This document shows positions 1,570-46,167 of a stretch of 46,167 nucleotides of DNA, piece after piece. A program made the translations under genes and the position numbers. The notes under the pieces are model-generated. The model worked only from the letters and a program-made list of their open reading frames with translations. It made no database searches and was not told where the DNA came from. Source of the DNA: an uncultured bacterium (GTDB lineage Bacteria > Fidelibacterota > Marinisomatia > Marinisomatales > UBA1611); NCBI GenBank assembly GCA_964478995.1, contig CAYZJY010000004.1:1-46167 (forward strand), read 5' to 3'. Numbering within the stretch: the stretch's first letter is position 1; each line of letters begins with the position of its first letter.

Positions 1570-1643
1570 TAGCGGAGGAGAGACTTGAACTCCCGACACC
1601 CGGATTATGATTCCGGTGCTCTAACCAGCTGAGCTACTCCGCC
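1570..1643 (-). tRNA. tRNA with CAT anticodon (elongator tRNA-Met, or tRNA-Ile2 if lysidine-modified)
   Basis: The reverse complement GGCGGAGTAGCTCAGCTGGTTAGAGCACCGGAATCATAATCCGGGTGTCGGGAGTTCAAGTCTCTCCTCCGCTA folds by hand into a 74-nt cloverleaf. It has a 7-bp acceptor stem, a GCTC/GAGC D stem, a CCGGA/TCCGG anticodon stem with loop AT-CAT-AA, and a TTCAAGT T-loop. No CCA is encoded. Confidence 0.9.
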
Positions 1644-1728
1644 ATTAATTTGTTTTTTAAAGCCAGGAAAATTATGTGATACTTGCCTCTAAAACCAATG
1701 AGAAATAGGAATGGAATTTTCCCTTTAT

Positions 1729-1758
1729 CTGACATTTCTTTCCCTTAATTTTTAGCAT
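1729..1758 (+). promoter_or_regulatory. Possible sigma-70-type promoter for gdhA
   Basis: CTGACA (1729-1734), an 18-nt spacer, then TAGCAT (1753-1758), about 25 nt upstream of the gdhA ATG. This is a pattern match only, and promoter consensus in this lineage may differ. Confidence 0.2.
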
Positions 1759-1774
1759 TACTATTCACAAATAG

Positions 1775-3121
<1,347 letters not shown>

Positions 3122-3127
3122 GCAGGC

Positions 3128-7465: not shown

Positions 7466-7466
7466 A

Positions 7467-8225
7467 ATGAAAAAAACACCCATAGTCGCGGGGAATTGGA
7501 AGATGCACAAACTTCCATCAGAAGGAACATCCTTTGTTGGTGAGGTGATGAACTTGGTTTTGGATATCAAATCTGTATCAGTTATCTTCGCGCCGCCGTT
7601 TACGGGGCTCTTTGAAATGAATGTTGAACCACCATTTCATGTTGCTGCACAGAATTGCCATTGGGAAGAGACAGGTGCATTTACTGGTGAGATATCGATT
7701 CCCATGATCAAAGATTGTGGAGCCAGTCATGTGATCGTCGGACATTCTGAGAGGCGACATGTCTTTGGTGAGACCAATGAGTGGATCAATAAGAAAATGA
7801 AGGCATTACTTACCCATGGGTTAAAGCCAATTCTATGCATAGGGGAAACTCTCGAGCAAAGAGAATCTGGCTCAACTGAACTTGTTATAAAAGAGCAATT
7901 GGAAAAAGGGTTTTCTTCGATCAATGACATTGATAATTGCATTATTGCCTATGAACCGGTATGGGCAATAGGTACTGGTATTACGGCAAATATGGAGCAG
8001 GTGGAAATGGCCCATGAGTTAATTCGGGAGATCATTGGTGAAGATCATGACGGTAGCAATGATATGCACATTTTATATGGTGGCTCTGTAAATTCAGGGA
8101 ATGCAGAAGACCTAATTCAGATAGAAGGGGTTGATGGATTTTTAATTGGAGGTGCAAGTTTGGATGCTAGTTCATTTGCATCGATAATAAGAACTGTTGA
8201 AGAAGTTCAGGAGAATATAAAATGA
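7467..8225 (+). CDS. tpiA: Triosephosphate isomerase
   Basis: 252 aa with AGNWKMH, VIVGHSERR, AYEPVWAIGTG (catalytic Glu) and LIGGASL. It starts 1 nt after the pgk stop. Confidence 0.97.
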   Translation: MKKTPIVAGNWKMHKLPSEGTSFVGEVMNLVLDIKSVSVIFAPPFTGLFEMNVEPPFHVAAQNCHWEETGAFTGEISIPMIKDCGASHVIVGHSERRHVFGETNEWINKKMKALLTHGLKPILCIGETLEQRESGSTELVIKEQLEKGFSSINDIDNCIIAYEPVWAIGTGITANMEQVEMAHELIREIIGEDHDGSNDMHILYGGSVNSGNAEDLIQIEGVDGFLIGGASLDASSFASIIRTVEEVQENIK

Positions 8226-8569
8226 CAGGATTTTTAATAGTGATACATACAATTGTGAGTCTTCTACTCATTGCAGTTGTCCTAATGCAGGCCAGTCAAG
8301 GTGGTGGTCTATCAGGTACATTTGGTGGAAATGCTGCTAGTTCTGTGCTTGGTGGCCAGAACGCAGGAAATGTACTCAGTAGGGTAACAACTTGGCTTGC
8401 AACCTTATTTCTTGTTTTAGCGGTAATTATTAGCGTTCTAAGTGGCCCTGGTGATAGCAGTGGAACTTCATTGGTTAGGCAGGCTGCAGAAAATAGACCT
8501 GAGGTACCTGCTGTAAATGTCCCACCCGTTGATGGCGAGGCAACCTTGGATCTTGATGGAGGAGAATAA
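8222..8569 (+). CDS. secG: Preprotein translocase subunit SecG
   Basis: 115 aa. Two hydrophobic segments flank the Gly-rich loop MQASQGGGLSGTFGGNAASSVLG. It overlaps the tpiA stop in an ATGA junction. Confidence 0.9.
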   Translation: MTGFLIVIHTIVSLLLIAVVLMQASQGGGLSGTFGGNAASSVLGGQNAGNVLSRVTTWLATLFLVLAVIISVLSGPGDSSGTSLVRQAAENRPEVPAVNVPPVDGEATLDLDGGE

Positions 8570-8627
8570 TAATATTTAATTAGCACTATTTTAGGATCAA
8601 CGTAGTTTGCAAAAGCCACAAGATCAT

Positions 8628-8714
8628 GCCGAAGTGGTGGAATTGGTAGACACGCATGCTTGAGGGGCATGTGGGGGAAACCCCGTGCCGGTTCGAGTCC
8701 GGCCTTCGGCACCA
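8628..8714 (+). tRNA. tRNA-Leu (GAG anticodon), class II with long variable arm, CCA encoded
   Basis: GCCGAAGTGGTGGAATTGGTAGACACGCATGCTTGAGGGGCATGTGGGGGAAACCCCGTGCCGGTTCGAGTCCGGCCTTCGGCACCA. Acceptor stem GCCGAAG/CTTCGGC, anticodon stem CATGC/GCATG with loop TT-GAG-GG, variable arm GGGGG-AAA-CCCC, T arm GCCGG-TTCGAGT-CCGGC. Confidence 0.95.
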
Positions 8715-8721
8715 ACAAAAA

Positions 8722-8747
8722 AGCCCAACATGTTGCGGGCTTTTTTT
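8722..8747 (+). terminator. Rho-independent terminator after tRNA-Leu
   Basis: AGCCC (8722-8726) pairs with GGGCT (8737-8741) and is followed by a T7 run. The stem is short, so confidence is moderate. Confidence 0.55.
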
Positions 8748-8760
8748 ATTTTTCAATCAG

Positions 8761-8789
8761 TTGACCAAGAGCTTGCAATAATTTAGATT
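8761..8789 (+). promoter_or_regulatory. Possible sigma-70-type promoter for the coiled-coil protein gene
   Basis: TTGACC (8761-8766), a 17-nt spacer, then TAGATT (8784-8789). It sits just downstream of the terminator and about 25 nt upstream of the ATG at 8814. Pattern match only. Confidence 0.3.
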
Positions 8790-8813
8790 CCGTTGCTAAA
8801 GAAGTCGCATCAC

Positions 8814-9953
8814 ATGGTAAAAAAACTCATAGTCATTATACTTCTTGTGACAGTCAGAGTATCTGCACAAGACTTATCCATTTTCTTTCTCAAAGATGGT
8901 TCGATCGTCCAGGGTCAAGTTGTCAATGAGAATCAATATAGGATATTCTTAAAAACAGAACAAGGTACCATAAAATTATTACCTTCTGATATTCTTGGAA
9001 GAGAAGATGCTGCAAAGAAAGGTGATCTTACGTTTGTATCTGAGAGATTAGAATATTTGCAAGGCAATGTTAATCATTTAACAGGTCAGGTCAATCACTG
9101 GAATGATTCCTTGAAGACCGCCCTTACTGACCTACATGAACTTTTCAAAGACCTAGAGGTATTACAAAATGAATTTGAGATAGACCTTCTAAGGTTGCAT
9201 TCCCAAGGTCGTGAGCAAAAAAAGAAGATGGAATATGTTCAAGATGACCTTGTCAATCAGAGAGTGGACATTGCTTCAAATAGACAAGAAATGGGGGGCA
9301 TTGATGATACAGTATCTACTCTGAATGAAAATTTTTCAAAAGTTAGTCAAAAGTTGGACGTTACTGCAAACCAATCCTATTTATTGTCGGGTAATTTGTC
9401 ATCAATCAAAAAAGACATACAATCCATAAGAAGCATACAAGAAAACCAGCAGAATCAAATTGACATGATGGCTGGTGCATTGGCAAATAACATTCAAGAA
9501 GTCATTAGAGTTCAAGGAAAATTTGGAGATGTTGAAGATGGAGTCAATGATAATCAAGTGGAAATCAAAAAATTAAACCATAGTCTTGATGAAAAGACAG
9601 ATCAACTTGCACAGGACATGAGGTCAATGCTTAAAGATCTAACCAATCGTTTGGATGTGATATCAACAAAGATAGAGGACATGGATAAGAACGCTTTGAA
9701 AGCACGTAAGAAATTGGCAACAGATCTAGGTGATCTTGCAAATGAATTGGAGATCATTGGTGAAAAAGTGATCACATTGACAAGGGATTTTCGCACCAAT
9801 GAAGAAAAATTAAGTTCAATTGGTGATAAAGTTGATAAAGTAGATGGTAAGGTTGACAAGGTGGATGGTAGTGTTAAAAAGTTGAATGATAGTCTAACAA
9901 AACTTAAAACTCAAGTTGATGACATTCCACTTCCAGCATCGACAGAGAATTGA
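8814..9953 (+). CDS. Secreted coiled-coil protein of unknown function (small N-terminal beta domain plus ~300-aa heptad-rich region)
   Basis: I prefer the ATG at 8814 (MVKKLIVIILLVTVRVSAQ signal peptide) to the listed TTG at 8793, which falls inside or just after the putative promoter. The rest is Leu/Asn/Asp/Lys-rich heptad sequence and ends in GDKVDKVDGKVDKVDGSVKK. Confidence 0.7.
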   Translation: MVKKLIVIILLVTVRVSAQDLSIFFLKDGSIVQGQVVNENQYRIFLKTEQGTIKLLPSDILGREDAAKKGDLTFVSERLEYLQGNVNHLTGQVNHWNDSLKTALTDLHELFKDLEVLQNEFEIDLLRLHSQGREQKKKMEYVQDDLVNQRVDIASNRQEMGGIDDTVSTLNENFSKVSQKLDVTANQSYLLSGNLSSIKKDIQSIRSIQENQQNQIDMMAGALANNIQEVIRVQGKFGDVEDGVNDNQVEIKKLNHSLDEKTDQLAQDMRSMLKDLTNRLDVISTKIEDMDKNALKARKKLATDLGDLANELEIIGEKVITLTRDFRTNEEKLSSIGDKVDKVDGKVDKVDGSVKKLNDSLTKLKTQVDDIPLPASTEN

Positions 9954-10043
9954 TTGATTTCTGCTAATCTTCATTATTTAGTATTAAAATCTGCTATTCG
10001 TATTTTGTTCATTAACAATAAAAATTTATATAGATGAGGTAAT

Positions 10044-23238: not shown

Positions 23239-24693
23239 TTATTTTTTTAGAAAACTAGGCAATTTGAAGATACTTTTATTTTTCTTTGCCTTTGATTTAT
23301 CCTTACGTCTATTCTTTTTTGTGTAATTCTTGAGATCTTCCATGGGGTTATCTCCTTCATCCAATACAATAAGTTCATCGTCGATCAATCTACCCATGTC
23401 ATAGACTGATTTTCTAAGAGGTAGGCCTTTTGAATCATATTGTATCCATTCGCCATTCTTTTTTGTACCCTTCATCAATCCTCTTTCCTTGACACGTCCA
23501 TTTCTATGGTATTTAACTATTAATTCATGGCCGGGAGGTGTTGTATTGGCTATGACTTCTCTACGTTTATCTACAACAGAAGTATCATATTTTACATATG
23601 TTTGTTTTACTAGGTTCTTTACTGTATCTTGGACCAATGTTGTATCAAATGTCAAAATTTTGAGAGTGTCAAAGATGACATTTTTATATTTCATTTCTGG
23701 ACCAATAAAAGTAGGATCTTGTGGTTTTCTTGTAATGGCTTGAACCACTGCTGTGGAATAGATCTCTTGAAGTTTTTTATATTCAACTTCAGCACGGGTC
23801 CAGTCACCACCTGCAGCATTCAAAGCTTGATTTATCCATCCTTGTGCAGATTTATCACCCATGTCTCTTGCTCTTAGTGCATCGCCTAATGTCTTGTATT
23901 TGGGAAAGGCAGATTGTTTTTGGTCTATCATGTCAGGAGTGAAATTATCAGGAAATTTACTTGAGTAGGTGTGGATGGTAACGGTATCATTGTTTGAGAC
24001 TACCAGTGTATCATATGTTTTTATAGTATCAACTGCAAAAAGCCAGATGGAATCCCTTACGACAGTAGTGTCGGTCGCATACACCCAGGTCGTATCATAG
24101 AAATATGTAGTATCATAAGCAAAGGCCCATACTGTATCTTTCATTATGGTTGTATCATAATTAACAAGAACAGTTGTATCCATCACAAAAATGGTATCAT
24201 AATTTGTTTGAATGACAGTTGTCGTATCATAGTTATTTATATAGACACTATCTATGAGAACCACTGTATCGTAAACTGTTGTAGTAGCATTTGTATATAT
24301 GAATGTTGTATCTAGGACCGTGGTGGTATCATAAAGGGTCGTATAAACAAATACAGTGTCATTAAGATTTTGAGACAGTTTCTCCTCATAGTTATTCTTT
24401 AATTCGTTGGATTGTTTTAGAAGTTCGGCAACCGTGTTTTTCAAACTGTCAAGTTCATTGCGATAAGTAGTCTCAACCTTTTTAGTACGGGCTAGAGCTT
24501 TGCTCTTTTCTATTTTTTGAACTCTTGGCTTTGATTTTTCTTTTTTATTTTCTTTCTCAAAGAGAGGACGCGGTGCTTCGATTATGGAACCAGATTGTGT
24601 TCTATAAACTTTTCTCTTTTTTTGACTAGAATTATCTTGTGCTGTCAATAGGACGCACAAAGAGAGTGCCACAGTTATTTGAACTCTACGCAT
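23239..24693 (-). CDS. Secreted repeat protein of unknown function (Lys-rich / coiled-coil N-region, 14-residue YDT repeat array, helical domain, MORN/YwqK-like repeat, Lys-rich tail)
   Basis: 484 aa with signal peptide MRRVQITVALSLCVLLTAQ. The repeat array spans residues 111-244. The C-terminal KYHRNGRVKERGLMKGTKKNGEWIQYDSKG resembles MORN-variant (YwqK-type) repeats. I recognise no characterised homologue. Confidence 0.75.
   Translation of the reverse strand: MRRVQITVALSLCVLLTAQDNSSQKKRKVYRTQSGSIIEAPRPLFEKENKKEKSKPRVQKIEKSKALARTKKVETTYRNELDSLKNTVAELLKQSNELKNNYEEKLSQNLNDTVFVYTTLYDTTTVLDTTFIYTNATTTVYDTVVLIDSVYINNYDTTTVIQTNYDTIFVMDTTVLVNYDTTIMKDTVWAFAYDTTYFYDTTWVYATDTTVVRDSIWLFAVDTIKTYDTLVVSNNDTVTIHTYSSKFPDNFTPDMIDQKQSAFPKYKTLGDALRARDMGDKSAQGWINQALNAAGGDWTRAEVEYKKLQEIYSTAVVQAITRKPQDPTFIGPEMKYKNVIFDTLKILTFDTTLVQDTVKNLVKQTYVKYDTSVVDKRREVIANTTPPGHELIVKYHRNGRVKERGLMKGTKKNGEWIQYDSKGLPLRKSVYDMGRLIDDELIVLDEGDNPMEDLKNYTKKNRRKDKSKAKKNKSIFKLPSFLKK
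23962..24363 (-). repeat. Coding tandem repeat with 42-nt (14-codon) period encoding YDTTxVxDTxWxxA/N-like units
   Basis: On the + strand the core appears as recurring GTATCATA (reverse complement TATGATAC = Tyr-Asp-Thr). Asp-Thr/Ser dipeptides recur at alternating 6- and 8-residue spacing through ten consecutive intervals. Confidence 0.8.
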
Positions 24694-28888: not shown

Positions 28889-30109
28889 ATGTTTGATATA
28901 GATAGATTGCAAAAACAATCTGGAATAATTGGTACCTCTGCAGGTATTCGTCAAGTACTTGAGATGATAACACAGGTAGCGCCAGTAGATATATCCGTAT
29001 TGATAACTGGAGAATCAGGGACAGGAAAGGAAGTGGTAGCGAAGGCAATCCATCAATTCAGTAAGAGGAATAATGAAAACCTTGTTGTTGTTAATTGTGG
29101 TGCGATTCCTGAAGGAATAATTGAATCTGAATTGTTTGGTCATAAGAAAGGTTCATTTACAGGAGCAGGGGAAGATAGGAAGGGGTATTTTGAACAAGCA
29201 AATAAGGGCACCATTTTTTTAGATGAGATAGGTGAGGCACCTCTTGAGACGCAGGTAAAATTATTGAGAGTGCTTGAAAGTGGGGAATTCATGCGTGTAG
29301 GCGAAGCCACAACTCGCAAAACAGATGTAAGGGTCATAGCAGCGACAAATAAAAATCTATCAGAATTAGTACAGAATGGTAATTTTAGACAAGATCTATA
29401 TTTTAGGCTTAAAACTGTTTCCATAAAAATACCATCATTACGTGATAGAGTAGAGGACATAAATGCATTCATTGAAAGATTTGCACTTGAGTTCACCAGA
29501 TCAAATGACATTAGATATCGTGGTTTCATGCCTGATGCAATACGACTAATGAAACAGTACGAATGGCCAGGCAATGTAAGAGAGTTAAAACATTTTGTTG
29601 AAAAGGTATTAGTTCTTGAAAAAGGTGAGAGAATTACCGCAGATGCAGTTAAGCGTGAACTTACAGATGTGTTACCTGAAAAATCATCCTTTAATCCTGC
29701 TCTGCCTGTATTGATATCACAATCTTCTGATAAGGCTGAGATAGATTTAATTTTACGGCAATTATTTATGCTTAAGCAAGATACAGAATTAATACAAAAA
29801 TTATTGGTTAGCGGATCAGTTACCCAACCTGTCAATGCTGGATTTCCTGAGATTGATTCAGCCGATAAGGGACTTAAAATACCGCAGAGATCCATGGAAA
29901 TAGTAGAAGATGGTTATAGATTTATCCGAGATGAAGCAATAGGAGACATGCTGATCAAGGATCTTGAAAAAGAAGCAATCAAACGTACATTGAAATTTTT
30001 TAATAATAATAGGCGTAAGACGGCAAGGTCATTAGGTACGAGTGAGAGGACATTATATCGTAAAATAGAGGAATTTGGAATAGAACCAAAAATCAAGAAG
30101 AGGAAATAA
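28889..30109 (+). CDS. Sigma-54-dependent transcriptional activator (bacterial enhancer-binding protein) lacking an N-terminal sensory/receiver domain
   Basis: 406 aa. The AAA+ domain begins at about residue 12 with Walker A GESGTGKE, sigma-54 contact loop GSFTGA, Walker B IFLDEIGE, RQDLYFRL and WPGNVREL. A ~100-aa linker precedes a Fis-type HTH RKTARSLGTSERTLYRKI. AAGGAG lies upstream of the ATG. Confidence 0.92.
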   Translation: MFDIDRLQKQSGIIGTSAGIRQVLEMITQVAPVDISVLITGESGTGKEVVAKAIHQFSKRNNENLVVVNCGAIPEGIIESELFGHKKGSFTGAGEDRKGYFEQANKGTIFLDEIGEAPLETQVKLLRVLESGEFMRVGEATTRKTDVRVIAATNKNLSELVQNGNFRQDLYFRLKTVSIKIPSLRDRVEDINAFIERFALEFTRSNDIRYRGFMPDAIRLMKQYEWPGNVRELKHFVEKVLVLEKGERITADAVKRELTDVLPEKSSFNPALPVLISQSSDKAEIDLILRQLFMLKQDTELIQKLLVSGSVTQPVNAGFPEIDSADKGLKIPQRSMEIVEDGYRFIRDEAIGDMLIKDLEKEAIKRTLKFFNNNRRKTARSLGTSERTLYRKIEEFGIEPKIKKRK

Positions 30110-30110
30110 T

Positions 30111-30659
30111 ATGCAACATATTATCATTTTCTTTCATTTTATTTTAGTATCCTGCGGGTTCTATTCAATGGCCGGTTCAATACCTCCTCATATTAAATCA
30201 ATAGCAATCCCCTTAATGGAAAACCAAACTGCTGAGTTTGGATTGGCAGAGAGTATTACGGATGGAATCTTGGAGCAATTCAATGATGCGGGAATCTTAT
30301 CCGTTACAGATCAAAATGTTGCTCATTCGATATTAAAAGGCACGGTGAAAAAGATAAGTGAGGGACCCTACACATATAGTAAAGAAGAGTCAGTTACAGA
30401 ATATCGGTATAAAATTGATGTCAAGATAGAGTGGTTTGATATTGCAAATGAAAAAAACATACTAGAGGGTGTCTATTCTGCATTTGGTGCCTATGGTCTT
30501 AGTGGAAATATTGCTGCTGATGGAATTGATAATGATAATGATGGTAAAATAGACGATGAAGATGACGATGAATTTGGGGAACCTAGGAGTTTTGCAACTA
30601 AGGTGGCCGTTCGTAAAATTGCAGAGGACATTTTGAATGATATTATGACAACGTGGTAA
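30111..30659 (+). CDS. lptE: LptE-like outer-membrane lipoprotein with an acidic EF-hand-like insertion
   Basis: 182 aa with lipobox L-V-S-C (Cys15). The N-terminal pattern IAIPLMENQTAEFGLAESITDGILEQF resembles LptE/RlpB-family proteins. Its position directly after a receiver-less sigma-54 EBP matches the arrangement I recall from Bacteroidota. The assignment rests on pattern and synteny only. Confidence 0.55.
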   Translation: MQHIIIFFHFILVSCGFYSMAGSIPPHIKSIAIPLMENQTAEFGLAESITDGILEQFNDAGILSVTDQNVAHSILKGTVKKISEGPYTYSKEESVTEYRYKIDVKIEWFDIANEKNILEGVYSAFGAYGLSGNIAADGIDNDNDGKIDDEDDDEFGEPRSFATKVAVRKIAEDILNDIMTTW

Positions 30660-37709: not shown

Positions 37710-38561
37710 GTGTATCCGATCATATATGATTTTGGAGAGATTGACCTATTTGGATTTCAGTTTCATTTTGCCATCTATTCCTTTGGTTTGATGCTAGTGA
37801 TTGCGTTTTATGCCTGTTACTTTTTTTTAGACCACGATCTTAAACGAAAAGGGTTTGATGATAAATTGGCATCTGATATTATTTTCTGGTCAGCGTTGGG
37901 TGGTATAATAGGTGCAAAGGCATATCATGTAATTGAAAATTTAGACCAGATATTGGCATCTCAAAATCCAATGTCAATGATCTTTAGTGGATCTGGTCTT
38001 GTATTTTTGGGAGGCTTGATCGGTGCAGTGTCTGCTGTGACCATAATATTGAATAAAAATAAGTTACCCTGGCTTAAGTTTGCTGACCAATTGGCTCCTT
38101 TGATATTATTGGGTTATGCTATAGGGCGTATCGGGTGTTTCCTTGTTGGCGATGATTATGGTATTCCTTCAAGTCTTCCATGGGCAATGTCATTTGCAGA
38201 AGGATTACCTCCGACAACGACTAGCACTTTTACTTCTCAATTTCCATGGATAGATATTTCAGATCAGTCACCAGGATTAATTACAGTACATCCTACTCAA
38301 CTATATGAGACATTCATATGCGGTGCATTATTTTATTTTCTATGGTCAAAACGTGATAAGATCATGGTTCCCGGTAGTTTATTTTTTCAATATCTCATTT
38401 TTGCTGGATTAGAGAGATTTTTTGTTGAATTCTTACGAACAAATGAAAAGTATCTATTTGATATTTTATCAGGTGCACAGGTTTTATCTTTATTGATGGT
38501 ATGTATTGGATCATACTTTTTAGTAAACCCAATTTCTGCAGTTGAGCCTGATACTGCGTAA
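37710..38561 (+). CDS. lgt: Prolipoprotein diacylglyceryl transferase
   Basis: 283 aa with a GTG start and AAGGAGAG a few nt upstream. It is polytopic, with FGFQFHFAIYSFGLMLVIAF, GGIIGAKAYH, LGYAIGRIGCFLVGDDYG and HPTQLYE blocks typical of Lgt. Confidence 0.9.
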   Translation: MYPIIYDFGEIDLFGFQFHFAIYSFGLMLVIAFYACYFFLDHDLKRKGFDDKLASDIIFWSALGGIIGAKAYHVIENLDQILASQNPMSMIFSGSGLVFLGGLIGAVSAVTIILNKNKLPWLKFADQLAPLILLGYAIGRIGCFLVGDDYGIPSSLPWAMSFAEGLPPTTTSTFTSQFPWIDISDQSPGLITVHPTQLYETFICGALFYFLWSKRDKIMVPGSLFFQYLIFAGLERFFVEFLRTNEKYLFDILSGAQVLSLLMVCIGSYFLVNPISAVEPDTA

Positions 38562-39384
38562 ATATTCATTAATATTAAATTTTTGTCTTTATTTTGTTTC
38601 AGGGCAAACTTCAAAACTTGAGATCAAAGAATATCGCCCTTTTCCTGTAGAGATTGATTTATTAGAACTTAACCCAACAAAGTTTAATTGGTCCATTGGT
38701 AATCGTTTTATACTATTGGATGAAGTGAAAAATCAATTACTGGAGATCGATCTATCTGGCGAATTGAATCTTCCTACGGGAGATGGAATAGAGAACTCTG
38801 TTTATGGCCAAATTATTTGGATGGGGATAGCACCAGAGGGAATACGAGTAGTGGACCGATTAGAAAATGAGATCCTGCATCTTGATTATAGATTGAATTC
38901 TATCCAAAAAACTTTGATTGAACCAAGATTGTACCCTGAAATGGTCACAATTAATTCTTGGGGCATAATGTATCTATACTCCCAGACATATAATGCGGTC
39001 TATTCCTTTGAGAGATCGAGAATTAATTATATTCCATTCATAGACCTATCGAAAGAACGACTTCCAAGTAATTGTTTTATTGATATGGCATCTAATGAGA
39101 ATGGCGACCTTGCCTTATTATCTTGTGAAGGGATAATCCATATATTCAGTCAAAATGGAAAATTAAAACTGTCATTCCCTTGTAATATTAAAAGTCCAAA
39201 GCACATTATTTCCCTTAGAGATGATTGGTTGGTATTGAATAATGATGGAAAGATGGAGTCGATTGAATCAAGCAAGCAGTATGCGATTCCGGCTTCAAGC
39301 ATACCTATCCTTGATGTCCAATCAATGAATAGAGCAATTGTTGTGTTGGCACAAGACCATATATTGATTATAGATGTTGAGTGA
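38542..39384 (+). CDS. Secreted hypothetical protein, beta-propeller-like (about six ~40-residue blades)
   Basis: 280 aa with a TTG start 20 nt inside the end of lgt and signal-like N-terminus MSLILRKYSLILNFCLYFVSGQ. The blade pattern recurs: RFILLDEVKNQLLEIDLSGEL, GIRVVDRLENEILHLDYRLN, IMYLYSQTYNAVYSFERS, DLALLSCEGIIHIFSQNGKL, DWLVLNNDGKMESIES, AIVVLAQDHILIIDVE. Confidence 0.6.
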   Translation: MSLILRKYSLILNFCLYFVSGQTSKLEIKEYRPFPVEIDLLELNPTKFNWSIGNRFILLDEVKNQLLEIDLSGELNLPTGDGIENSVYGQIIWMGIAPEGIRVVDRLENEILHLDYRLNSIQKTLIEPRLYPEMVTINSWGIMYLYSQTYNAVYSFERSRINYIPFIDLSKERLPSNCFIDMASNENGDLALLSCEGIIHIFSQNGKLKLSFPCNIKSPKHIISLRDDWLVLNNDGKMESIESSKQYAIPASSIPILDVQSMNRAIVVLAQDHILIIDVE

Positions 39385-42300
39385 AAAAAGATTAATCGTC
39401 TTTCTTCTGTCTATTTCGCTTAAAACATTTGCTCAAATCTCGAGCGCAACAGATACATTGATTTATTTCAGAAATTCTAATGCTATAAAACTAGATCATC
39501 AGTTTATTATTGAATCATCAATAAAGGTTATTGGTCAAGAAGGTTTGATATCACCAATTGAAGTTAAATCCATTATTGGGGAAGTCATATTTGCAGATAA
39601 TCTTGATGATCAAACAATAGTAATCAAGTATGATTATTTGAAAAATAGACTCCCTTTATCAATTGGACCAAGATGGATGAAACTTCCAATTCTTGATTTA
39701 AAATACAGTAAGAAGGATTCTATTAAGGAGGTGAAAAATTTAGAAAAAAATAAATCGAATATCTTCTCTTCAGGTAGTTTATACAGGCAAATACAATTAT
39801 CTCAAATGGGTGGTTCTAGTTTTGTAGGGGGTCTTCAAATGCAGATAAATGGGAAGATATCTGATGAAGTGAGTATTAGTGGCATATTAACAGACCAGGA
39901 TTTCCCAATTCAGCCAGAAGGTTCAACTCGGGAACTTGATGATTTGGATAATGTCCTTATTAAGATATCGCACAGTAATTTAAATTTAGATGCTGGTGAT
40001 ATTTATTATAAACATCGTAATATAAATAGAAAACTCATTGGGTTAAATAATAACTTTAAAACAAAAGAATTTAGTGGCTCCGCTGTTTATGCTAAATCAA
40101 AAGGTGATTATAAATACTTAGAGTTAAAGGGAAGAGATGGGGATCAAGGCCCATACCAATTAATGGGAAATGATGGTAATCAAGATATAGTAATACTAGC
40201 AGGTACAGAAAAGATTTGGGTTAATGGGAAGGAATTAATTCGTGGTACAAACTATGATTACATTATTGATTATTCAACTGCAGAAGTAACCTTTACACCG
40301 CAAATTATGATCAATTTTGATTCAGATCTTGCTTTTGAATATCAATATTCTGATTATCAATATCAGAAAACCTTTATGGGTGGTAATCTAAAGAAGAAAC
40401 TAGGTGAGTCTTCCATAATTGATATAGGTCTATACAATGAAGATGACCGATATAATGAACATGATTTAGATGATGATTATTTCAATTCTCTTTCATCTGT
40501 TTCAAGTGGTTCAATTACTGTGCCCACAGTCATTATAGATGTGAACGGAGACTATGTAATTAATAATGGTATCTATGAATATGACCCATCTAAAATGAGT
40601 TCTGATTCAATTCGTTATCAGGTTGTATTTCAATATGATGCAAATGGAGAATATGAAAGAAGAATTTCAGATCAAGGAAGGATCTATTATGCATTTATTC
40701 CAAATTCTGACAGAACAAAAACGATTCAACTCTATAGTCCTTTCAGAATAATTCATGCACCTAAAGTCCATCAATTTGGTTATTTTGATTATGACTATAA
40801 GGTGAATGAACATTTTAAAATTATTGGTGATCTATCAGGCTCTATTATTGATCAAAATAAAATGAATGCAACCTCATTAACTCGAGGAACTTCCTATAAG
40901 TTTGGTATTAACATAGATTCTCTGGGCTTAGGACTAGGCAGGTTGAATCTAAATATTCATAATTGGAAAAGGGATTCAAATTACAAACCCATAGGGCGGG
41001 AAAATGAAATTATGCATACTCGTCTATGGAATTTGGATTCCTCAATTAGCAGAGGAATTAATGAGATCTCCGCTCGCTCTGATTATGTAATTGATAATTT
41101 AAGTAAATCCTATTTGGAGATAGCTCAACTAAGATATGATGGTGAAAATAATACAAGGCTCAATCTTGAGCAGAGATTGATAAACAAAAGATTTGGTCAA
41201 TCTTTTTTTAATTATCTAACTGTAAAAAATTCAATTAAGACTTTTAGTAGATCCCAGGCAAATCTTCAAATTAATATTGGCAGTTTATCACCATTTTTAG
41301 CGTACTTAAATGAAAATGACCCATCCAAGGGTAATTTCTCCAAAATTGGGTTTGGATTTGATCTTGATGAAGAAGATAGAAAAGTTACCATCGGGTTTGA
41401 TCTACGTAATGATGAGAGCATAATTAATTCTAATGAGAAATTTCAAACAAGAGATTTGGTTGGAAGTATTAAATACCAGAAAAGAAATAATAATGGGATC
41501 AATCAAAATATAATTTTCAAAAAGCGTATGAAAAATGGTGGCAATAATACTAATGATTATGATTATTCAATGTTTGACATTGATATTATAAAACATGAGT
41601 TTAGTAACCCATTGCGATGGGGTATAAAACTAAGGAAAGAACAAACGCTTGTTCAAAATCGTACAGTTGTATATGACTCAGTAGGGTTGGGAATGGGCCA
41701 ATATCGATATGACCCCGTATTTAACACGTATATTTCTGATCCGAATGGGTCATTTGTTTCTTATAGTGTTTTGAGTGGTGAAAAAATCCCAAATACAGTT
41801 ATTAGAGGGTCACAAAATATTACATTAGACATGGAAAAGTTTATAAATCTATCCAATACTGTCATAAGGTTCAATTCAAGACAAGAATTCCAAGGCCAAA
41901 ATTCTGGATTTAATCATATTTTTCAGCCAGAGATAAGCGACAGTTCTATATCACAATCGAATATTTTCAATAGATTTGAAATAAATTTTAATAACCTTAG
42001 AAGATTAATGATTTGGTTAGAAGATTCACAAAATTTCAACGGATTGGATTCTCGAGGTAATAATATTTTTTATTCCAATGAAATAGGATTTGATTTCAAC
42101 CAACCATTATCAAAAACCTTATCAATACGAAATCAAAGTGAGATTAGATCAATTAATGTAGAATCGACTGTATCTGCTCTTAGAAATCGTAATTCATATG
42201 GTTGGTGGAATGATCTAGAAATACAGATGAGATTAAATTATTCATTCGATCTTGACTTCGGTTTTTTACTAGGATCTGAAAATGGAGTGCAGAAAGAAAA

Positions 42301-42595
42301 TAATTTTAATGGAAATGCCATTGGCATGAATCTATCAAGTAGAATACTACTTAATGAAAAAGGTCGTTTCCAGACAGAGATCAACTATGTTAAAGTCGTT
42401 GAAGAAAATAATCTAATGTATTTGCCTCCAGAGACATTTAATGGTTTTCCCCTTGGAATTAGTCTCAGGACCAATTCGAGACTCACCTATTCAATTAGCA
42501 GGTCTATTTCGATAGTAATGTCATTGAATACGATTGATGATAACAGATATAGTAATTTCATTTCATTTCAAGGAGAGGTTCGTGCGTATTTTTAA
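39374..42595 (+). CDS. Large (1073 aa) secreted protein, predicted outer-membrane beta-barrel, function unknown
   Basis: The ATG lies 11 nt inside the upstream ORF. The signal peptide is MLSEKRLIVFLLSISLKTFAQ. The sequence is Asn/Ser/Tyr/Gly-rich with alternating hydrophobic strands throughout, and the C-terminus ...LTYSISRSISIVMSLNT...FISFQGEVRAYF ends in an OMP-type beta-signal with terminal Phe. Confidence 0.65.
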   Translation: MLSEKRLIVFLLSISLKTFAQISSATDTLIYFRNSNAIKLDHQFIIESSIKVIGQEGLISPIEVKSIIGEVIFADNLDDQTIVIKYDYLKNRLPLSIGPRWMKLPILDLKYSKKDSIKEVKNLEKNKSNIFSSGSLYRQIQLSQMGGSSFVGGLQMQINGKISDEVSISGILTDQDFPIQPEGSTRELDDLDNVLIKISHSNLNLDAGDIYYKHRNINRKLIGLNNNFKTKEFSGSAVYAKSKGDYKYLELKGRDGDQGPYQLMGNDGNQDIVILAGTEKIWVNGKELIRGTNYDYIIDYSTAEVTFTPQIMINFDSDLAFEYQYSDYQYQKTFMGGNLKKKLGESSIIDIGLYNEDDRYNEHDLDDDYFNSLSSVSSGSITVPTVIIDVNGDYVINNGIYEYDPSKMSSDSIRYQVVFQYDANGEYERRISDQGRIYYAFIPNSDRTKTIQLYSPFRIIHAPKVHQFGYFDYDYKVNEHFKIIGDLSGSIIDQNKMNATSLTRGTSYKFGINIDSLGLGLGRLNLNIHNWKRDSNYKPIGRENEIMHTRLWNLDSSISRGINEISARSDYVIDNLSKSYLEIAQLRYDGENNTRLNLEQRLINKRFGQSFFNYLTVKNSIKTFSRSQANLQINIGSLSPFLAYLNENDPSKGNFSKIGFGFDLDEEDRKVTIGFDLRNDESIINSNEKFQTRDLVGSIKYQKRNNNGINQNIIFKKRMKNGGNNTNDYDYSMFDIDIIKHEFSNPLRWGIKLRKEQTLVQNRTVVYDSVGLGMGQYRYDPVFNTYISDPNGSFVSYSVLSGEKIPNTVIRGSQNITLDMEKFINLSNTVIRFNSRQEFQGQNSGFNHIFQPEISDSSISQSNIFNRFEINFNNLRRLMIWLEDSQNFNGLDSRGNNIFYSNEIGFDFNQPLSKTLSIRNQSEIRSINVESTVSALRNRNSYGWWNDLEIQMRLNYSFDLDFGFLLGSENGVQKENNFNGNAIGMNLSSRILLNEKGRFQTEINYVKVVEENNLMYLPPETFNGFPLGISLRTNSRLTYSISRSISIVMSLNTIDDNRYSNFISFQGEVRAYF

Positions 42596-43910
42596 TTACG
42601 TTTATTTTATTTTCTCAATTTTGATGGCACAAAATGAATTGATTGTTATAGAATCATTAAATCCTGACACAATCTTACAGGACCTGACTGTTAAGCTAGA
42701 TGAAGATGATAGACTATCCTTATTTTTCGAACTCGAATCATTCACATTGGATGGTGATAATTCAACTTATAGAATAATTGATAGCATGAAGTTTATTGAT
42801 ACATTATTGATTGGTCATAATAATGATATTCGTGAAAATATCTTATATCAAATATTTTCCCCTTATAGGGATGCAAAAATTGGAAAGAAGTTCAATGCTA
42901 TTGGAAAGGAACTTGTATCAAGATATTTTTTTATTAATAATGAACCTAATTATCAACTAGGATTAATTAATAATAAACTGGGAGCATCTTTTTCATTTAT
43001 TCCTACGTTTGAAAGCAATTTTTCAGGAATACTTGGGATGAATAAAACAGAAAATAATTGGAATCTGAATGGTGAGTTAAATTTTCACATGGAAAATTTT
43101 TTCATGAATGCAGAAAATATAAATTTTTACTGGAAGCGCATAGACTCTCTTTCACAGGTAATTAAATTAGGCTTTGCATTTCCTCATCCTTTTGGCTGGA
43201 ATACAGGAATAGGGATGAAATACCGACATGAAATATTTAATGGTTTATATGCTTCCATGGAAAATAGATATATTTTAGATACCTTTGTACCCTTATTAAA
43301 TAGTTTAGGTATCGGTTATGTTTCTGGAAGCATAAGAGCAACGGAAAAGGGAAGAGTATATGGCTATGGGAATATAGGTTACAAAGCCTTTTCATTAATT
43401 TCAAAAAAGGATGATACAAATCATAGATTATTGCCTACATCTGGAAAAAGAATCAATACTATGATCGATGGTGGTTTAGAAGATAAAAAGCGTTTCATCA
43501 ATTGTAATATAATTTTAGAGAGGTATTTCCCCTTCAGCAAAAGAATGCATTTCAAACTTAAACTGAATGGAAAGGGTATTGCATATTGGAAATCTAGTGT
43601 GCCAAAGACAAGGTATTATTGGTTTGGTGGTGCATCATCTCTAAGAGGGTATGCAGAACAGGAATTTTCGGCAACACAATTCCAAGTGACCACAATGGAA
43701 ATAGGGTATAAACCAAATAGATCAATGCAAACTATTGCTTTCATGGACATAGGTTCTGATAGATTAAATTATTCCGATAGACGTTGGTTCGGATATGGTA
43801 TTGGCATAAGTCAATTAACCAAGGACTCCATTATCAATATTGAATATGGACTATCTGGATTTTCCATGGATTCTGGAAAACTACATATAAAATGGGTTTC
43901 TCGTTTATGA
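42582..43910 (+). CDS. Short Omp85/D15 (BamA/TamA-superfamily) outer-membrane protein
   Basis: 442 aa from the GTG at 42582, preceded by AGGAGAG (42571-42577). The signal peptide is VRIFNYVYFIFSILMAQ. The Omp85 barrel hallmark is YWFGGASSLRGYAEQEF, followed by GSDRLNYSDRRWFGYGIGIS. The ~190-aa N-terminal region leaves room for at most 1-2 POTRA domains. The listed start at 42534 gives a non-signal N-terminus. Confidence 0.7.
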   Translation: MRIFNYVYFIFSILMAQNELIVIESLNPDTILQDLTVKLDEDDRLSLFFELESFTLDGDNSTYRIIDSMKFIDTLLIGHNNDIRENILYQIFSPYRDAKIGKKFNAIGKELVSRYFFINNEPNYQLGLINNKLGASFSFIPTFESNFSGILGMNKTENNWNLNGELNFHMENFFMNAENINFYWKRIDSLSQVIKLGFAFPHPFGWNTGIGMKYRHEIFNGLYASMENRYILDTFVPLLNSLGIGYVSGSIRATEKGRVYGYGNIGYKAFSLISKKDDTNHRLLPTSGKRINTMIDGGLEDKKRFINCNIILERYFPFSKRMHFKLKLNGKGIAYWKSSVPKTRYYWFGGASSLRGYAEQEFSATQFQVTTMEIGYKPNRSMQTIAFMDIGSDRLNYSDRRWFGYGIGISQLTKDSIINIEYGLSGFSMDSGKLHIKWVSRL

Positions 43911-43926
43911 AAAATAAATTGATCAA

Positions 43927-44931
43927 ATGTGGATGAAATTTAGACAAATATTATTTTGCTTAATTATTATAGTTAATGGTTGTGAGAATAAACGTGAAGC
44001 TTTAGGTGCTGACAATGAGATACGCGTGATTTGCTCTAAGATTGATCGAACTATGGTAAATGAATATTTATCATCCATATTTATTGACACTCTTTTTACT
44101 CCAGAGCCTGAACCATATTACCATTTGAAATTCTCAGAACCAGAGACATATAACGAATTAAAATCTCAATCTCAGGTTATCATAGCGGCGATTAGTCGAG
44201 ATAAAAATAATTCTGGATATCAATTAGTTAAGAGATTGCTTCCCTTAGATCAGTTTGATCTTACAGAAAATGGTGACCCCATAATTCTTGCAAAGGATGT
44301 ACATGCGAAAAAACAATTATTCATGATCATTAATGCTGCGTCAAAAGAACATCTGATGATGAATATTGATGGGAAAAAGAATCAATTCAGGAAATACTTC
44401 CATGACCAATTCATCGATCGTCAAAGTAGATACATTTTTGGAGAAGATAGAAATAAGAAACTTGAAGACTCATTGAAATCAGAGTATGGTTGGACACTCA
44501 AAATACCATGGGGATGGGATAGAATAAAAAATCGTCCAGACTCAAATTTTGTATGGCTTGGTAAGGAAATGCCATTTCAGTGGATTGGAATTGGTTGGGC
44601 AAAAGGAAATCTGACGAAAGACGAATTGTTGGTTGGTGAATACTTTTGGAAATGGCCTAAAGAAAACTATGGTTCCATTCAAATAAATAATTACAAGTTC
44701 AAATTAGATAAGGCAAATTACGGTGATGATTTTGCTTGGAGAGTGCAGGGAATATGGGAGACAATAGATCTTAAAGAATCTAAAGGCGGGCCATTCCGAT
44801 CGTACCTTTTCTATGACTCAGTTAATGACTTGACTTATCATTTGAATTATTTAATTCATCATCCAGGTAATGATAAGTCTATATTCATGAGACAAATGGA
44901 TATGATCATAAAAACTTTTAAAATATCATAG
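43927..44931 (+). CDS. Lipoprotein of unknown function (DUF4837-like by recollection)
   Basis: 334 aa with N-terminus MWMKFRQILFCLIIIVNGCENK, i.e. lipobox V-N-G-C. The early block NEIRVICSKIDRTMVNEYLSSIFIDTLFTPEPEPYYHLKFSEPETYNELKSQSQVII resembles what I recall of DUF4837, but this is unverified. Confidence 0.5.
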   Translation: MWMKFRQILFCLIIIVNGCENKREALGADNEIRVICSKIDRTMVNEYLSSIFIDTLFTPEPEPYYHLKFSEPETYNELKSQSQVIIAAISRDKNNSGYQLVKRLLPLDQFDLTENGDPIILAKDVHAKKQLFMIINAASKEHLMMNIDGKKNQFRKYFHDQFIDRQSRYIFGEDRNKKLEDSLKSEYGWTLKIPWGWDRIKNRPDSNFVWLGKEMPFQWIGIGWAKGNLTKDELLVGEYFWKWPKENYGSIQINNYKFKLDKANYGDDFAWRVQGIWETIDLKESKGGPFRSYLFYDSVNDLTYHLNYLIHHPGNDKSIFMRQMDMIIKTFKIS

Positions 44932-44935
44932 ATAA

Positions 44936-45802
44936 ATGAGAATTTTAATTACAGGTGCATTTGGACAACTGGGTTTTGCCTTAAGCAAAGTTCTTGATAA
45001 AGTTAGTCACTATGAAATAATAAGGACAGGTCGCTCGATTCCAATTGGGCAAAAAGGTATTTTCCTAGATATACAAAATAAAGTACACCTTAAAGAGGTT
45101 ATTAAATCTACTGAGCCTGAATTGATTATCAATCTTGCTGCAATGACAAATGTTGATGTATGTGAACAATACCCAGAACTTGCTAAAGAAATTAATATTG
45201 CGGGGTTGCAGCATATATGTGATTCTTTTGATGGAAAGATCATTCATCTCTCGACTGACTATGTATTTGATGGTGAATCTGGCCCATATGAAGAAGAAGA
45301 TCAAACATGTCCAATCTCAGTCTACGGTAAAACGAAATTGGCATCTGAGCGAATTTTATTGAATAATAATCCCAACCATCTGGTGATAAGAGGAAACGTG
45401 ATTTATGATTATTCTACAGTATCAAATGCTAGTTTTTTGAATTGGGTGGTATCATCATTAAAAGAGGATAAGGAAATAAAAGTCGTTGAAGATCAAATTA
45501 ATAATCCTACTTGGGCTCGATCAATGGCTGATGTCATCAATTTATGTATATCCAATGACCTTAATGGCGTTATCCATTGGGGTGATGCAGATTATGTAAG
45601 TAGATTTGATTTTTCAAAAATGATAGCCGAAAGATTTTCACTCAATTCAGAATTGATCAAACCTATTTTGACCAAGGAATTATGCCAAACTGCACCCAGG
45701 CCTCTACAGTCTGGACTAATGACCACTAAAATAGTTAAAATATTGGATGTCATACCACCATCCATTAGTGACTGTCTGGATGAAATAAGTATTTTAGAAT
45801 AG
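44936..45802 (+). CDS. rfbD: dTDP-4-dehydrorhamnose reductase
   Basis: 288 aa with MRILITGAFGQLG (Rossmann), NLAAMTNVDVCE, HLSTDYVFDG and SVYGKTKLASE (YxxxK catalytic motif). Confidence 0.9.
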   Translation: MRILITGAFGQLGFALSKVLDKVSHYEIIRTGRSIPIGQKGIFLDIQNKVHLKEVIKSTEPELIINLAAMTNVDVCEQYPELAKEINIAGLQHICDSFDGKIIHLSTDYVFDGESGPYEEEDQTCPISVYGKTKLASERILLNNNPNHLVIRGNVIYDYSTVSNASFLNWVVSSLKEDKEIKVVEDQINNPTWARSMADVINLCISNDLNGVIHWGDADYVSRFDFSKMIAERFSLNSELIKPILTKELCQTAPRPLQSGLMTTKIVKILDVIPPSISDCLDEISILE

Positions 45803-45803
45803 A

Positions 45804-46167
45804 ATGAAAACCTTAATTATATCTCCAACCTACAATGAAAGAAAAAATATTCAAATCCTGGTAGACCAAGTTTTCGGACAAAATACAGACTATCATCTAC
45901 TGATTATTGATGATAATTCTCCCGATGGTACATCAATAAAAGTAAAGGAATTGCAGAAGAATTATCCAAACCTACATTTAGAGGAACGGCCTGGAAAAGC
46001 AGGATTGGGAACTGCTTATTTATTTGGATTTAAATGGGCATTAAAAAATGATTTTGATGCTATCGTACAGATGGATGCTGATCTATCACATGACCCCAAA
46101 GATATACCTAAATTAATCGAAAACTTAGATGCAAATGACCTTGTCATTGGTAGCAGGTATGTAGAAG
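45804..46167 (+). CDS. GT2-family polyprenol-phosphate mannosyl/glucosyl-transferase (Dpm1-like), 3'-partial
   Basis: It is open to the right window edge. It has ISPTYNERKNI, LLIIDDNSPDGT, GLGTAYLFGF and VQMDADLSHDP, typical of dolichol/undecaprenol-phosphate mannose synthase-like enzymes. Confidence 0.85.
   Translation, partial: MKTLIISPTYNERKNIQILVDQVFGQNTDYHLLIIDDNSPDGTSIKVKELQKNYPNLHLEERPGKAGLGTAYLFGFKWALKNDFDAIVQMDADLSHDPKDIPKLIENLDANDLVIGSRYVE

Follow-up and report, generated by a model that had tools for sequence, protein, structure and literature searches.

A predicted giant outer-membrane barrel encoded between an NHL propeller and a shortened Omp85 protein, in a gene order kept across several Bacteroidota-related phyla

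The DNA analysed here (the window) is a stretch of 46,167 nucleotides of contig CAYZJY010000004.1 from an uncultured bacterium of the Marinisomatia, and our subject is a run of three consecutive plus-strand genes within it. The first, orfA (38542-39384, TTG start), encodes a secreted protein of 280 aa that is a degenerate member of an NHL beta-propeller family; the second, orfB (39374-42595, ATG start, stop codon at 42593-42595), encodes a predicted giant outer-membrane beta-barrel protein of 1073 aa; and the third, orfC (42582-43910, GTG start), encodes a BamA-like Omp85 paralogue of 442 aa. The preliminary description of this DNA, made from its letters and open reading frames (ORFs), had reported that neighbouring genes here overlap (lgt and orfA by 20 nt, orfA and orfB by 11 nt, orfB and orfC by 14 nt) or lie close together (16 nt between orfC and the next gene, orfD, and 4 nt between orfD and rmlD), and its coordinates, overlaps, gaps, Shine-Dalgarno site, lipobox and C-terminal beta-signal all agree with the ORF list and the sequence. 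The Shine-Dalgarno-like AGGAGAG (42571-42577, plus strand) lies 4 nt 5' of the GTG at 42582, which we take as the start of orfC because most close homologues are 442 aa long; an alternative TTG at 42534 would give a protein of 458 aa. We place the system among outer-membrane barrels that have a putative partner from the Omp85 family; neither the barrel family nor this Omp85 subfamily has been characterised.

Behind a signal peptide (aa 1-20), the AlphaFold2 (AF2) model of orfB, built from a 68-sequence alignment (pLDDT 85.5, pTM 0.72), predicts a small and presumably periplasmic beta domain (39437-39643, plus strand, aa 22-90; strands at 22-31, 45-53 and 80-89 by DSSP), a disordered linker (aa 99-125; pLDDT below 50 at residues 99-105 and 107-125) and a barrel region (39758-42592, plus strand, aa 129-1073) in which, by DSSP, about 40 strands of transmembrane type meander up and down. 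Two domains interrupt the predicted wall. Insert 1 (40130-40324, plus strand, aa 253-317), a small beta domain, is more strongly conserved than any other block of the family, with the pattern QGPY...AGTEK...DY.IDY..ITF and the invariant residues Q258, G259, P260, Y261, L263, G277, E279, G285, R290, G291 and F307, and it is a candidate plug or docking site; insert 2 (40451-40753, plus strand, aa 360-460) is a mixed alpha/beta domain which DSSP places between two wall strands. The translation ends in a beta-signal (..SFQGEVRAYF, 42563-42592, plus strand), and across the family R1070, A1071 and F1073 of this C-terminus (..EVRAxF) are nearly invariant. Mean-field direct coupling analysis (DCA) of 450 homologues (effective number, Meff, 350) gives, independently of the model, 27 sequential antiparallel strand pairings at z=5-10. 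By the same analysis, strands 246-252 and 318-324 co-vary across insert 1, strands 347-353 and 469-475 pair across insert 2 (z=10.2), and residues 775-794 make a hairpin excursion and are not a strand of the wall; the figure of about 40 wall strands is thus a DSSP count from one AF2 model after correction by DCA. A closed single-chain outer-membrane barrel should have a signal peptide, an antiparallel meander with an even number of strands, a C-terminal aromatic beta-signal and hydrogen-bonded first and last strands, and orfB has the signal peptide, the meander and the beta-signal, in keeping with the preliminary reading of a secreted protein that ends in an outer-membrane protein beta-signal (FQGEVRAYF). 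Foldseek searches of the Protein Data Bank (PDB) with the orfB model returned large outer-membrane barrels only, namely SprA, SlpA, LptD and MtrB followed by TonB-dependent transporters, with TM-scores that are all at most 0.25; because these matches are all generic large barrels, the predicted fold class is clear and no specific relative stands out.

At the level of sequence, orfB of the window has no match in Pfam or NCBIfam, and as a single query (phmmer) it finds none among PDB sequences; the 68-member family profile likewise finds no PDB sequence at E<=10, though the PDB holds SprA and LptD chains. When 40 diverse members of the family were compared with Pfam at E<=1, there was no match to LptD, OstA, TamB, SprA, Plug or TonB_dep_Rec families, and the sole matches were weak ones to DUF2460 (4 of 40 members, best E=3.6e-6) and SdrD_B, on a small inserted domain. 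The family is nevertheless large, and the idea that the giant barrel is a rarity did not survive. The window protein as query yields 245 matches, all unnamed and without Pfam domains, a Flavobacteriales orthologue yields more than 5300 clusters at 90% identity, and an exhaustive profile search yields 5200 clusters at 50% identity (2808 of them at E<=1e-30), with uniform lengths of 1050-1200 aa. At least 570 relatives were confirmed in a scan of GTDB species genomes, in Marinimicrobia, KSB1, Calditrichia, Eiseniibacteriota, Cloacimonadota, Ignavibacteriota, Chlorobiota, Balneolales and Bacteroidota, the last including Flavobacteriales, Chitinophagales (among them a Chitinophaga pinensis metagenome-assembled genome, MAG), Cyclobacteriaceae and Bacteroidales. 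Judged by these searches, the orfB family spans the Fibrobacterota-Chlorobiota-Bacteroidota (FCB) superphylum. One full-length homologue (P0182) is labelled by JGI as 'CRISPR/Cas system CSM-associated protein Csm2 small subunit', an evident mis-annotation.

Among known barrels, the top Foldseek match of orfB (8gl8_A, E=3e-9) is SprA/Sov of the type IX secretion system (T9SS), which is, like the predicted orfB barrel, a giant outer-membrane barrel made of a single chain and confined to the FCB superphylum, and which has a lumen whose size calls for capping partners. However, the TM-score normalised by the query (TMq) is only 0.24, no sequence relation shows up in Pfam, in NCBIfam or in the profile search of the PDB, solved SprA chains have 2100-2300 residues as against 1073 aa and 36 strands as against a predicted ~40, and the neighbours of orfB are an NHL propeller and an Omp85 protein. 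With no family or PDB sequence match and a structural match that is generic, we rejected SprA/Sov as the identity of orfB. A preprint of March 2026 describes the 36-strand SprA as the largest known beta-barrel, and its survey of barrel strand numbers leaves out barrels of more than 26 strands (10.64898/2026.03.07.710327). SlpA of Deinococcus, the second-ranked match (7zgx_A, TM-score normalised by the target, TMt, 0.22), joins, like the orfB model, an N-terminal periplasmic domain, a linker and a very large C-terminal barrel, but it has 30 strands and connects the outer membrane to the cell wall, and orfB has neither an SLH domain nor a coiled coil nor sequence similarity to it, and the phyla differ.

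LptD shares with the predicted structure of orfB a large barrel and an N-terminal periplasmic beta domain, and, in Marinimicrobia, a lipoprotein gene nearby. We would have recognised it by a PF04453 barrel with an OstA/LptA-like beta-jellyroll (PF03968), the barrel being one of 26 strands plugged by LptE; neither domain is found in orfB or its 40 relatives at E<=1, the N-terminal domain of orfB has only about 70 residues, TM-scores to LptD are 0.11-0.15, and the lipoprotein, a DUF4837 protein, is not LptE. A gene for LptE itself lies elsewhere in the window (30111-30659, plus strand, 182 aa, PF04390 E=2e-7), 1 nt past a sigma-54 activator gene (28889-30109), and its presence points to a conventional LptD/E route distinct from the giant barrel. 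LptD was rejected on these grounds. A TonB-dependent receptor, with a PF07715 plug and a 22-strand PF00593 barrel, was rejected as well, as neither domain matched at E<=1 in the 40 members.

For orfC the preliminary description had proposed an Omp85/D15-type barrel, and the assignment holds. An Omp85 protein should score above the gathering threshold of PF01103 and have a 16-strand barrel, a (V/L)RG(Y/F) motif in L6 and one or more N-terminal POTRA domains. The orfC product scores 40.1 bits on PF01103 (cut-off 24), contains YWFGGASSLRGYAEQEF with the L6 motif SLRGY (R355 and G356 are invariant), and is modelled by AF2 (pLDDT 86.1, pTM 0.75) with two POTRA-like domains (aa ~20-138) behind a signal peptide and, after them, a barrel of 16 strands (aa ~146-441); 13 of its 21 orthologues match PF07244 (POTRA). 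By profile and model, then, orfC is a member of the Omp85 superfamily. Within the superfamily it stands nearest to BamA. The profile of the 21 orthologues matches E. coli BamA at E ~1e-35 to 1e-38 and TamA at 3e-29, with an alignment to E. coli BamA that begins near residue 187, within the POTRA region, and continues into the barrel, and a Foldseek search with the model finds BamA (4k3c, E=9e-17) and TamA (4c00, TMq 0.63).

It does not, however, pass as an ordinary member of any characterised branch. BamA is defined by at least 297 bits on TIGR03303 and five POTRA domains; orfC of the window has no TIGR03303 match at E<=1 and two POTRA-like domains in its model, and its orthologues score 46-138 bits, starting at model positions 190-272, whereas the true BamA of a Bacteroidota MAG (locus L087), taken as a control, scores 352 bits. 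For TamA we required at least 625 bits on NF047950, for TamL at least 400 bits on NF052279 with an N-terminal lipobox, and in addition an adjacent TamB (DUF490) gene; orfC orthologues reach at most ~33 bits for TamA, their best TamL match (E=1.6e-7) is well under the cut-off, the orfC N-terminus (MRIFNYVYFIFSILMA/QNE) has no cysteine, so that the window protein would not be a lipoprotein, and PF04357 is missing from orfB and its 40 relatives. For TpsB proteins such as FhaC and ShlB we required more than 22.7 bits on PF03865 and an adjacent TpsA cargo gene with a two-partner secretion (TPS) domain; orfC scores 17.7 bits, and no TPS-domain or haemagglutinin-type match was found among the scanned neighbours. 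All three identities were therefore rejected. Orthologues of orfC are ~440-505 aa long in Marinimicrobia and 561-690 aa in the sampled KSB1, Calditrichia and Eiseniibacteriota, which makes the Marinimicrobia copies 60-250 aa shorter than those of the other phyla sampled; the longer orthologues start their BamA alignment earlier in the POTRA region, and one or more POTRA domains seem to have been lost from the Marinimicrobia copies. Sequence and model together thus identify orfC as a BamA-derived paralogue with a shortened POTRA arm. A further Omp85 protein, of 387 aa, is encoded in Balneolales about 5 kb upstream of orfB on the opposite strand (1632-2795, minus strand, of L001; also in L022, L036 and L039); its NF047779 score is 165 bits, its length leaves no room for a POTRA arm, and its orthology to orfC is not clear (BLASTP E=0.04).

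One could still suppose that orfB is a divergent LptD, SprA, TamB/AsmA-like protein or TonB-dependent receptor and that orfC is simply this genome's ordinary BamA or TamA, given that Foldseek assigns a probability of 1.0 to SprA, LptD and TonB-dependent transporters and that the orfC family is closest to BamA. This idea is largely refuted, and we consider it very improbable indeed: none of the 40 orfB members matches those families in Pfam at E<=1, the window protein has no NCBIfam match and the 68-member profile no PDB sequence match, the TM-scores run from 0.11 to 0.24, the LptE gene implies a separate LptD/E route, and orfC falls under the BamA, TamA and TamL cut-offs with too few POTRA domains and no lipobox. 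On both counts the preliminary description, which had recognised no characterised family for the 1073-aa protein and had doubted that the 442-aa protein is an ordinary BamA or TamA, stands.

By itself, orfA of the window has no match in Pfam, NCBIfam or the PDB, and its nature emerges from its family, composed of the window copy and the positional orthologues of 21 other loci, which were joined by iterated hidden Markov model (HMM) searches and by position. NHL propellers were recognised by PF01436 repeats and similarity to solved NHL propellers; the profile of the 22 members matches solved six-bladed NHL propellers in the PDB at E=3e-58, and 15 of the 22 match PF01436. At the family level orfA is thus, by profile comparison, a six-bladed NHL beta-propeller of which the window copy is a degenerate example, and the earlier reading of about six propeller-like blades was correct. 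The N-terminus is hydrophobic, and a canonical lipobox is absent from the translation. BamB, an eight-bladed PQQ-like lipoprotein, was rejected as the identity of orfA because the propellers it matches belong to the NHL type and the six-bladed (DUF5128) type and because no canonical lipobox is present.

Taken together, the three proteins recall the core of the machinery that assembles beta-barrels (BAM): orfC has POTRA domains, a 16-strand barrel and the RGY motif of L6, a periplasmic beta-propeller is co-encoded, and the adjoining gene encodes a possible substrate with a C-terminal aromatic beta-signal. The differences are that orfC has two POTRA-like domains, and even its longer orthologues are shorter than BamA, which has five; that the propeller is six-bladed and without a lipobox, whereas BamB is an eight-bladed lipoprotein; and that no BamD-like lipoprotein with tetratricopeptide repeats is present and the genes are tied to one giant barrel gene. 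A shortened Omp85 protein encoded beside one very large partner is also the arrangement of TAM, the module for translocation and assembly, and of TamL-TamB in Bacteroidota, and the best TM-score of the orfC model is the one to E. coli TamA; but orfB has a cleavable signal peptide, a ~40-strand meander and a beta-signal, whereas TamB is an AsmA-like groove anchored in the inner membrane, with DUF490. The triad therefore follows a BAM-core or TAM-like logic and yet fails the defining tests for BamA, TamA, TamL, TpsB, LptD, SprA, TamB and TonB-dependent receptors. We also considered whether a dedicated orfC might substitute for the Bacteroidota BAM subunits BamG and BamH; this was ruled out, since BamG/BamH have been reported in six of seven other FCB phyla (PMC12611786).

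The strongest reason to treat the three genes as a unit is their order in other genomes. In 88 loci (given L numbers here) ORFs were called and searched with iterated HMMs. The order orfA-orfB-orfC was found in every Marinimicrobia-type locus (L005/6, L009-L014), in KSB1 (L007, L026 and L031; L044 has orfB-orfC on a short contig), in Calditrichia (L060 and L075; L047 has orfB-orfC, and L021 has orfA-orfB, at which point the locus ends), in Eiseniibacteriota (L055) and in several further MAGs, and a Cloacimonadota locus (L074) has orfA-orfB. Precomputed Pfam labels of L005 and L007 independently give an NHL gene, a giant gene and an Omp85 gene in this order. When the ORFs of 23 triad loci were clustered, orfA, orfB and orfC were the sole common genes. 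Reciprocally, a metagenome scan was seeded with six KSB1-type orfC sequences and restricted to loci with at least 1 kb upstream (n=51); orfB lay directly upstream of orfC in 39 of these, with most gaps at 15 nt or less, and orfA lay upstream of orfB in 24 of the 25 with room for it. Gene order conserved over at least four phyla has thus strengthened the proposed link between the Omp85 protein and the giant barrel. Of the phyla in which the preliminary description proposed to look for synteny, Marinimicrobia have the triad, as do KSB1, Calditrichia and Eiseniibacteriota, whereas in Bacteroidota and Ignavibacteriota orfB stands by itself.

As to the extent of the unit, comparison of the loci indicates that it consists of the three genes orfA-orfB-orfC, and that the DUF4837 gene, lgt and the rhamnose and glycosyltransferase family 2 (GT2) genes are not core. 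Of the four-gene module first proposed, the triad is therefore retained, and the lipoprotein gene becomes a neighbour specific to Marinimicrobia and possibly accessory. This gene, orfD (43927-44931, plus strand, 334 aa), encodes, as anticipated, a lipoprotein: it matches DUF4837 (PF16125, for which more than 25 bits were required) with 94.2 bits (E=9e-27) over profile positions 2-295 of 295, its lipobox is IVNGC, and C19 is invariant in 8 orthologues. No relative was found among PDB structures, and we found no paper that mentions DUF4837. One could envision a four-part version of the system in Marinimicrobia, with DUF4837 as a true fourth subunit (an LptE-like plug or a BamD-like partner) and the position next to lgt as a functional envelope supra-operon. 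The DUF4837 gene indeed follows the triad in the window and in every Marinimicrobia-type locus (L005, L009-L014), even past an intervening gene, and the lipobox cysteine is invariant. But among the 23 clustered loci it accompanies the triad only in those of the Marinimicrobia type, being absent from triad loci of KSB1, Calditrichia, Eiseniibacteriota, Cloacimonadota and further MAGs; an RNase R-type gene separates it from orfC in L005 (12778-14922), L013 and L014, an insertion which shows how loose the tie between DUF4837 and the triad is; lgt lies upstream in just three loci, all of them Marinimicrobia (L009, L011 and L013); and packing is tight throughout the window. We regard the four-part version as distinctly improbable. 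Of the glycan genes, rmlD and the GT2 gene are likewise confined to the Marinimicrobia-type loci of the 23, so the envelope supra-operon of the preliminary description could not be upheld, and an adjacency that is so lineage-specific lends no support to a role in lipoprotein export or polysaccharide export.

All of the evidence is computational. It establishes the parts and the families they belong to, their models and a gene order that is conserved, and from these we infer physical contact between the proteins, an insertase role, a plug role and a channel function. The reading we prefer, tentatively and at somewhat less than an even chance, is that orfC and orfA are dedicated partners, an insertase pair, of a giant plugged barrel formed by orfB. 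On this reading orfC and orfA would form a small BamA/BamB-like pair that takes the beta-signal of orfB at the lateral seam of the Omp85 barrel, folds or inserts the oversized orfB barrel and helps to close its unusually long sheet. The two would probably stay bound to orfB, the propeller or the inserted domains might close the lumen, and the orfB barrel might serve as a gated large-bore channel for some cargo. By standard barrel geometry the C-alpha diameter of a circular barrel of 40 strands would come to roughly 7-8 nm, and a lumen of that size would need plugging; candidate plugs are insert 1, insert 2, the propeller, which is about 45-50 Å across, and in Marinimicrobia the DUF4837 lipoprotein.

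Several observations weigh against this dedicated-partner reading. The tight junctions, which the preliminary description had taken as translational coupling and hence as a sign of a module, are not module evidence in themselves because tight packing is general in this compact genome: by our reading of the ORF list, about 15 of the 24 other same-strand junctions in the window overlap or are at most 10 nt apart. A scan for promoters and terminators gave counts at chance level. What goes beyond chance is, as far as the sequences tell, the comparative synteny and not the gene coupling. With regard to the barrel, the first and last strands of orfB show only a weak co-variation signal (z=3.2, rank 155 among 76263 windows, non-significant after multiple testing), and what implies closure is the AF2 model, which is confident, together with Foldseek matches that are barrels only. 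Lastly, the genes also occur apart. In 12 of the 51 metagenomic loci the orfC-type Omp85 gene has no orfB upstream, and most of these 12 have in common a neighbourhood of cdsA, a MiaB/RimO-type radical-SAM gene, a gene for a GWxTD protein, pfkB, the Omp85 gene itself, ubiA and rnhB. The orfB genes of Bacteroidota, Ignavibacteriota, Chlorobiota and Balneolales, for their part, stand without orfA or orfC among housekeeping genes that are specific to each lineage. Solitary orfC and solitary orfB both occur, and the partnership is thus not obligatorily encoded in cis. The ubiA gene of the orfC exceptions finds its closest match in the gene next after orfC in the triad locus L018, so the solitary orfC types look like orthologues separated from orfA-orfB. 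Solitary orfB genes stand among nudix, pfkB, an IF-2B family gene, recO and htrA in Ignavibacteria-type loci, and between rpsF-rpsR-rplI-dsbD and exbB-exbD-exbD in Balneolales; these housekeeping neighbours gave no functional clue. As an observation on the loci themselves, in L156, L159 and L162-L168 the orfC-type protein has about 590 aa and its gene stands, with neither orfA nor orfB, in a conserved pfkB-Omp85-ubiA-rnhB context downstream of a gene for a GWxTD-domain protein. In the Bacteroidota MAG L087, a bona fide BamA gene (2558-5050) ends 1.5 kb upstream of orfB (6524-9997), and this was the sole Bacteroidota locus examined to have a same-strand Omp85 gene nearby.

Such loci could be taken to mean that the order is merely inherited, with orfC a general second BamA-type insertase (a TamA analogue) and orfB a large and abundant porin or structural protein, the two having no specific partnership; the orfC types without orfB, the orfB genes without orfC in most Bacteroidota-type loci and the true BamA gene near orfB in L087 all fit this. 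Yet the three-gene order, the orientation and a near-zero spacing are kept over at least four phyla in which no other neighbour is conserved, and order that persists while orfB identity falls to ~25% among the loci sharing it is hard to explain without selection for co-expression. We therefore think inheritance without partnership improbable.

Alternatively, the three proteins may form a stable translocon in which the Omp85 protein is a working subunit, a TpsB/TamA-like gate on the giant barrel, the propeller recruits cargo, and the general BAM assembles all of them. Omp85 proteins serve as working gates in two-partner secretion and TAM, and orfC has a match to the ShlB/FhaC family, albeit a sub-threshold one (17.7 versus 22.7 bits); the same synteny that suggests an insertase suggests a translocon equally; and the top structural match of orfB is the T9SS translocon SprA, which is partner-bound in the 8gl8 complex. 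However, no locus has a TpsA-like or TamB-like gene for a cargo or partner, the similarity to SprA (TMq 0.24) is generic, and the same data fit the insertase. A stable translocon seems to us rather unlikely, if less so than an order inherited without partnership.

If orfC and orfA are indeed dedicated to orfB, their conserved pairing would be a testable case of a substrate-dedicated Omp85 protein, and it would bear on how BAM-type machines handle very large barrels. Should the model be right, orfB would be the largest single-chain beta-barrel yet proposed, which raises questions about both its folding and its cargo, and it belongs to a large family that has neither a Pfam nor an NCBIfam model. 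The triad could point to an unstudied envelope machine across Bacteroidota-related phyla. In its widest form, which we advance as a possible but unlikely extension, this would be an unrecognised FCB-wide outer-membrane machine, a single-chain barrel of ~40 strands that exceeds the 36-strand SprA and is encoded, in the non-Bacteroidota phyla, together with its own BamA-derived insertase and an NHL cap; it would work as a second translocon of large bore, or else as a biogenesis pathway of its own, separate from BAM, TAM, Lpt and T9SS. We found no description of the orfB family or the triad in the literature on large barrels, Omp85/NHL proteins, DUF4837 or surface-lipoprotein export. Both the Chitinophaga pinensis MAG (L078) and an isolate, Balneola sp. 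EhC07 (L040), have orthologues of orfB, and experiments would be possible if cultured relatives carry the gene.

The genes that flank the locus are of known families. Upstream, and outside the conserved unit, lies lgt (37710-38561, plus strand), which encodes prolipoprotein diacylglyceryl transferase (PF01790 E=2.6e-53; TIGR00544 124 bits, cut-off 118.9). Downstream, the preliminary description had named rfbD and a polyprenol-phosphate glycosyltransferase gene, and both identifications were sound. The former, here rmlD (44936-45802, plus strand), encodes dTDP-4-dehydrorhamnose reductase, with a strong Pfam RmlD match (PF04321 E=8.5e-68) and a TIGR01214 score of 224.0 bits that is just under the equivalog threshold of 224.05; the latter is the 5' part of a GT2 gene (45804-46167, plus strand) whose translation resembles DPM1-like polyprenol-phosphate glycosyltransferases, which begins 1 nt past the rmlD stop and leaves the window, and in L005 a PF00535 gene stands at the orthologous position. 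Elsewhere the window holds ordinary chromosomal genes, including pgk, tpiA, a gene with a murA-like EPSP synthase fold, trkAH, uvrBC, an asnS/aspS-type synthetase gene, nadE and lepA; the GC content is 31-42%. Among its other ORFs, one of 484 aa (23239-24693, minus strand) has no Pfam match, and one of 386 aa (8793-9953, plus strand) has only a sub-threshold match to DUF1664 in Pfam. A protein of 992 aa (3128-6106, minus strand) combines a response-regulator receiver domain with PPDK_N, the ATP-binding domain of pyruvate phosphate dikinase, which is an unusual fusion.

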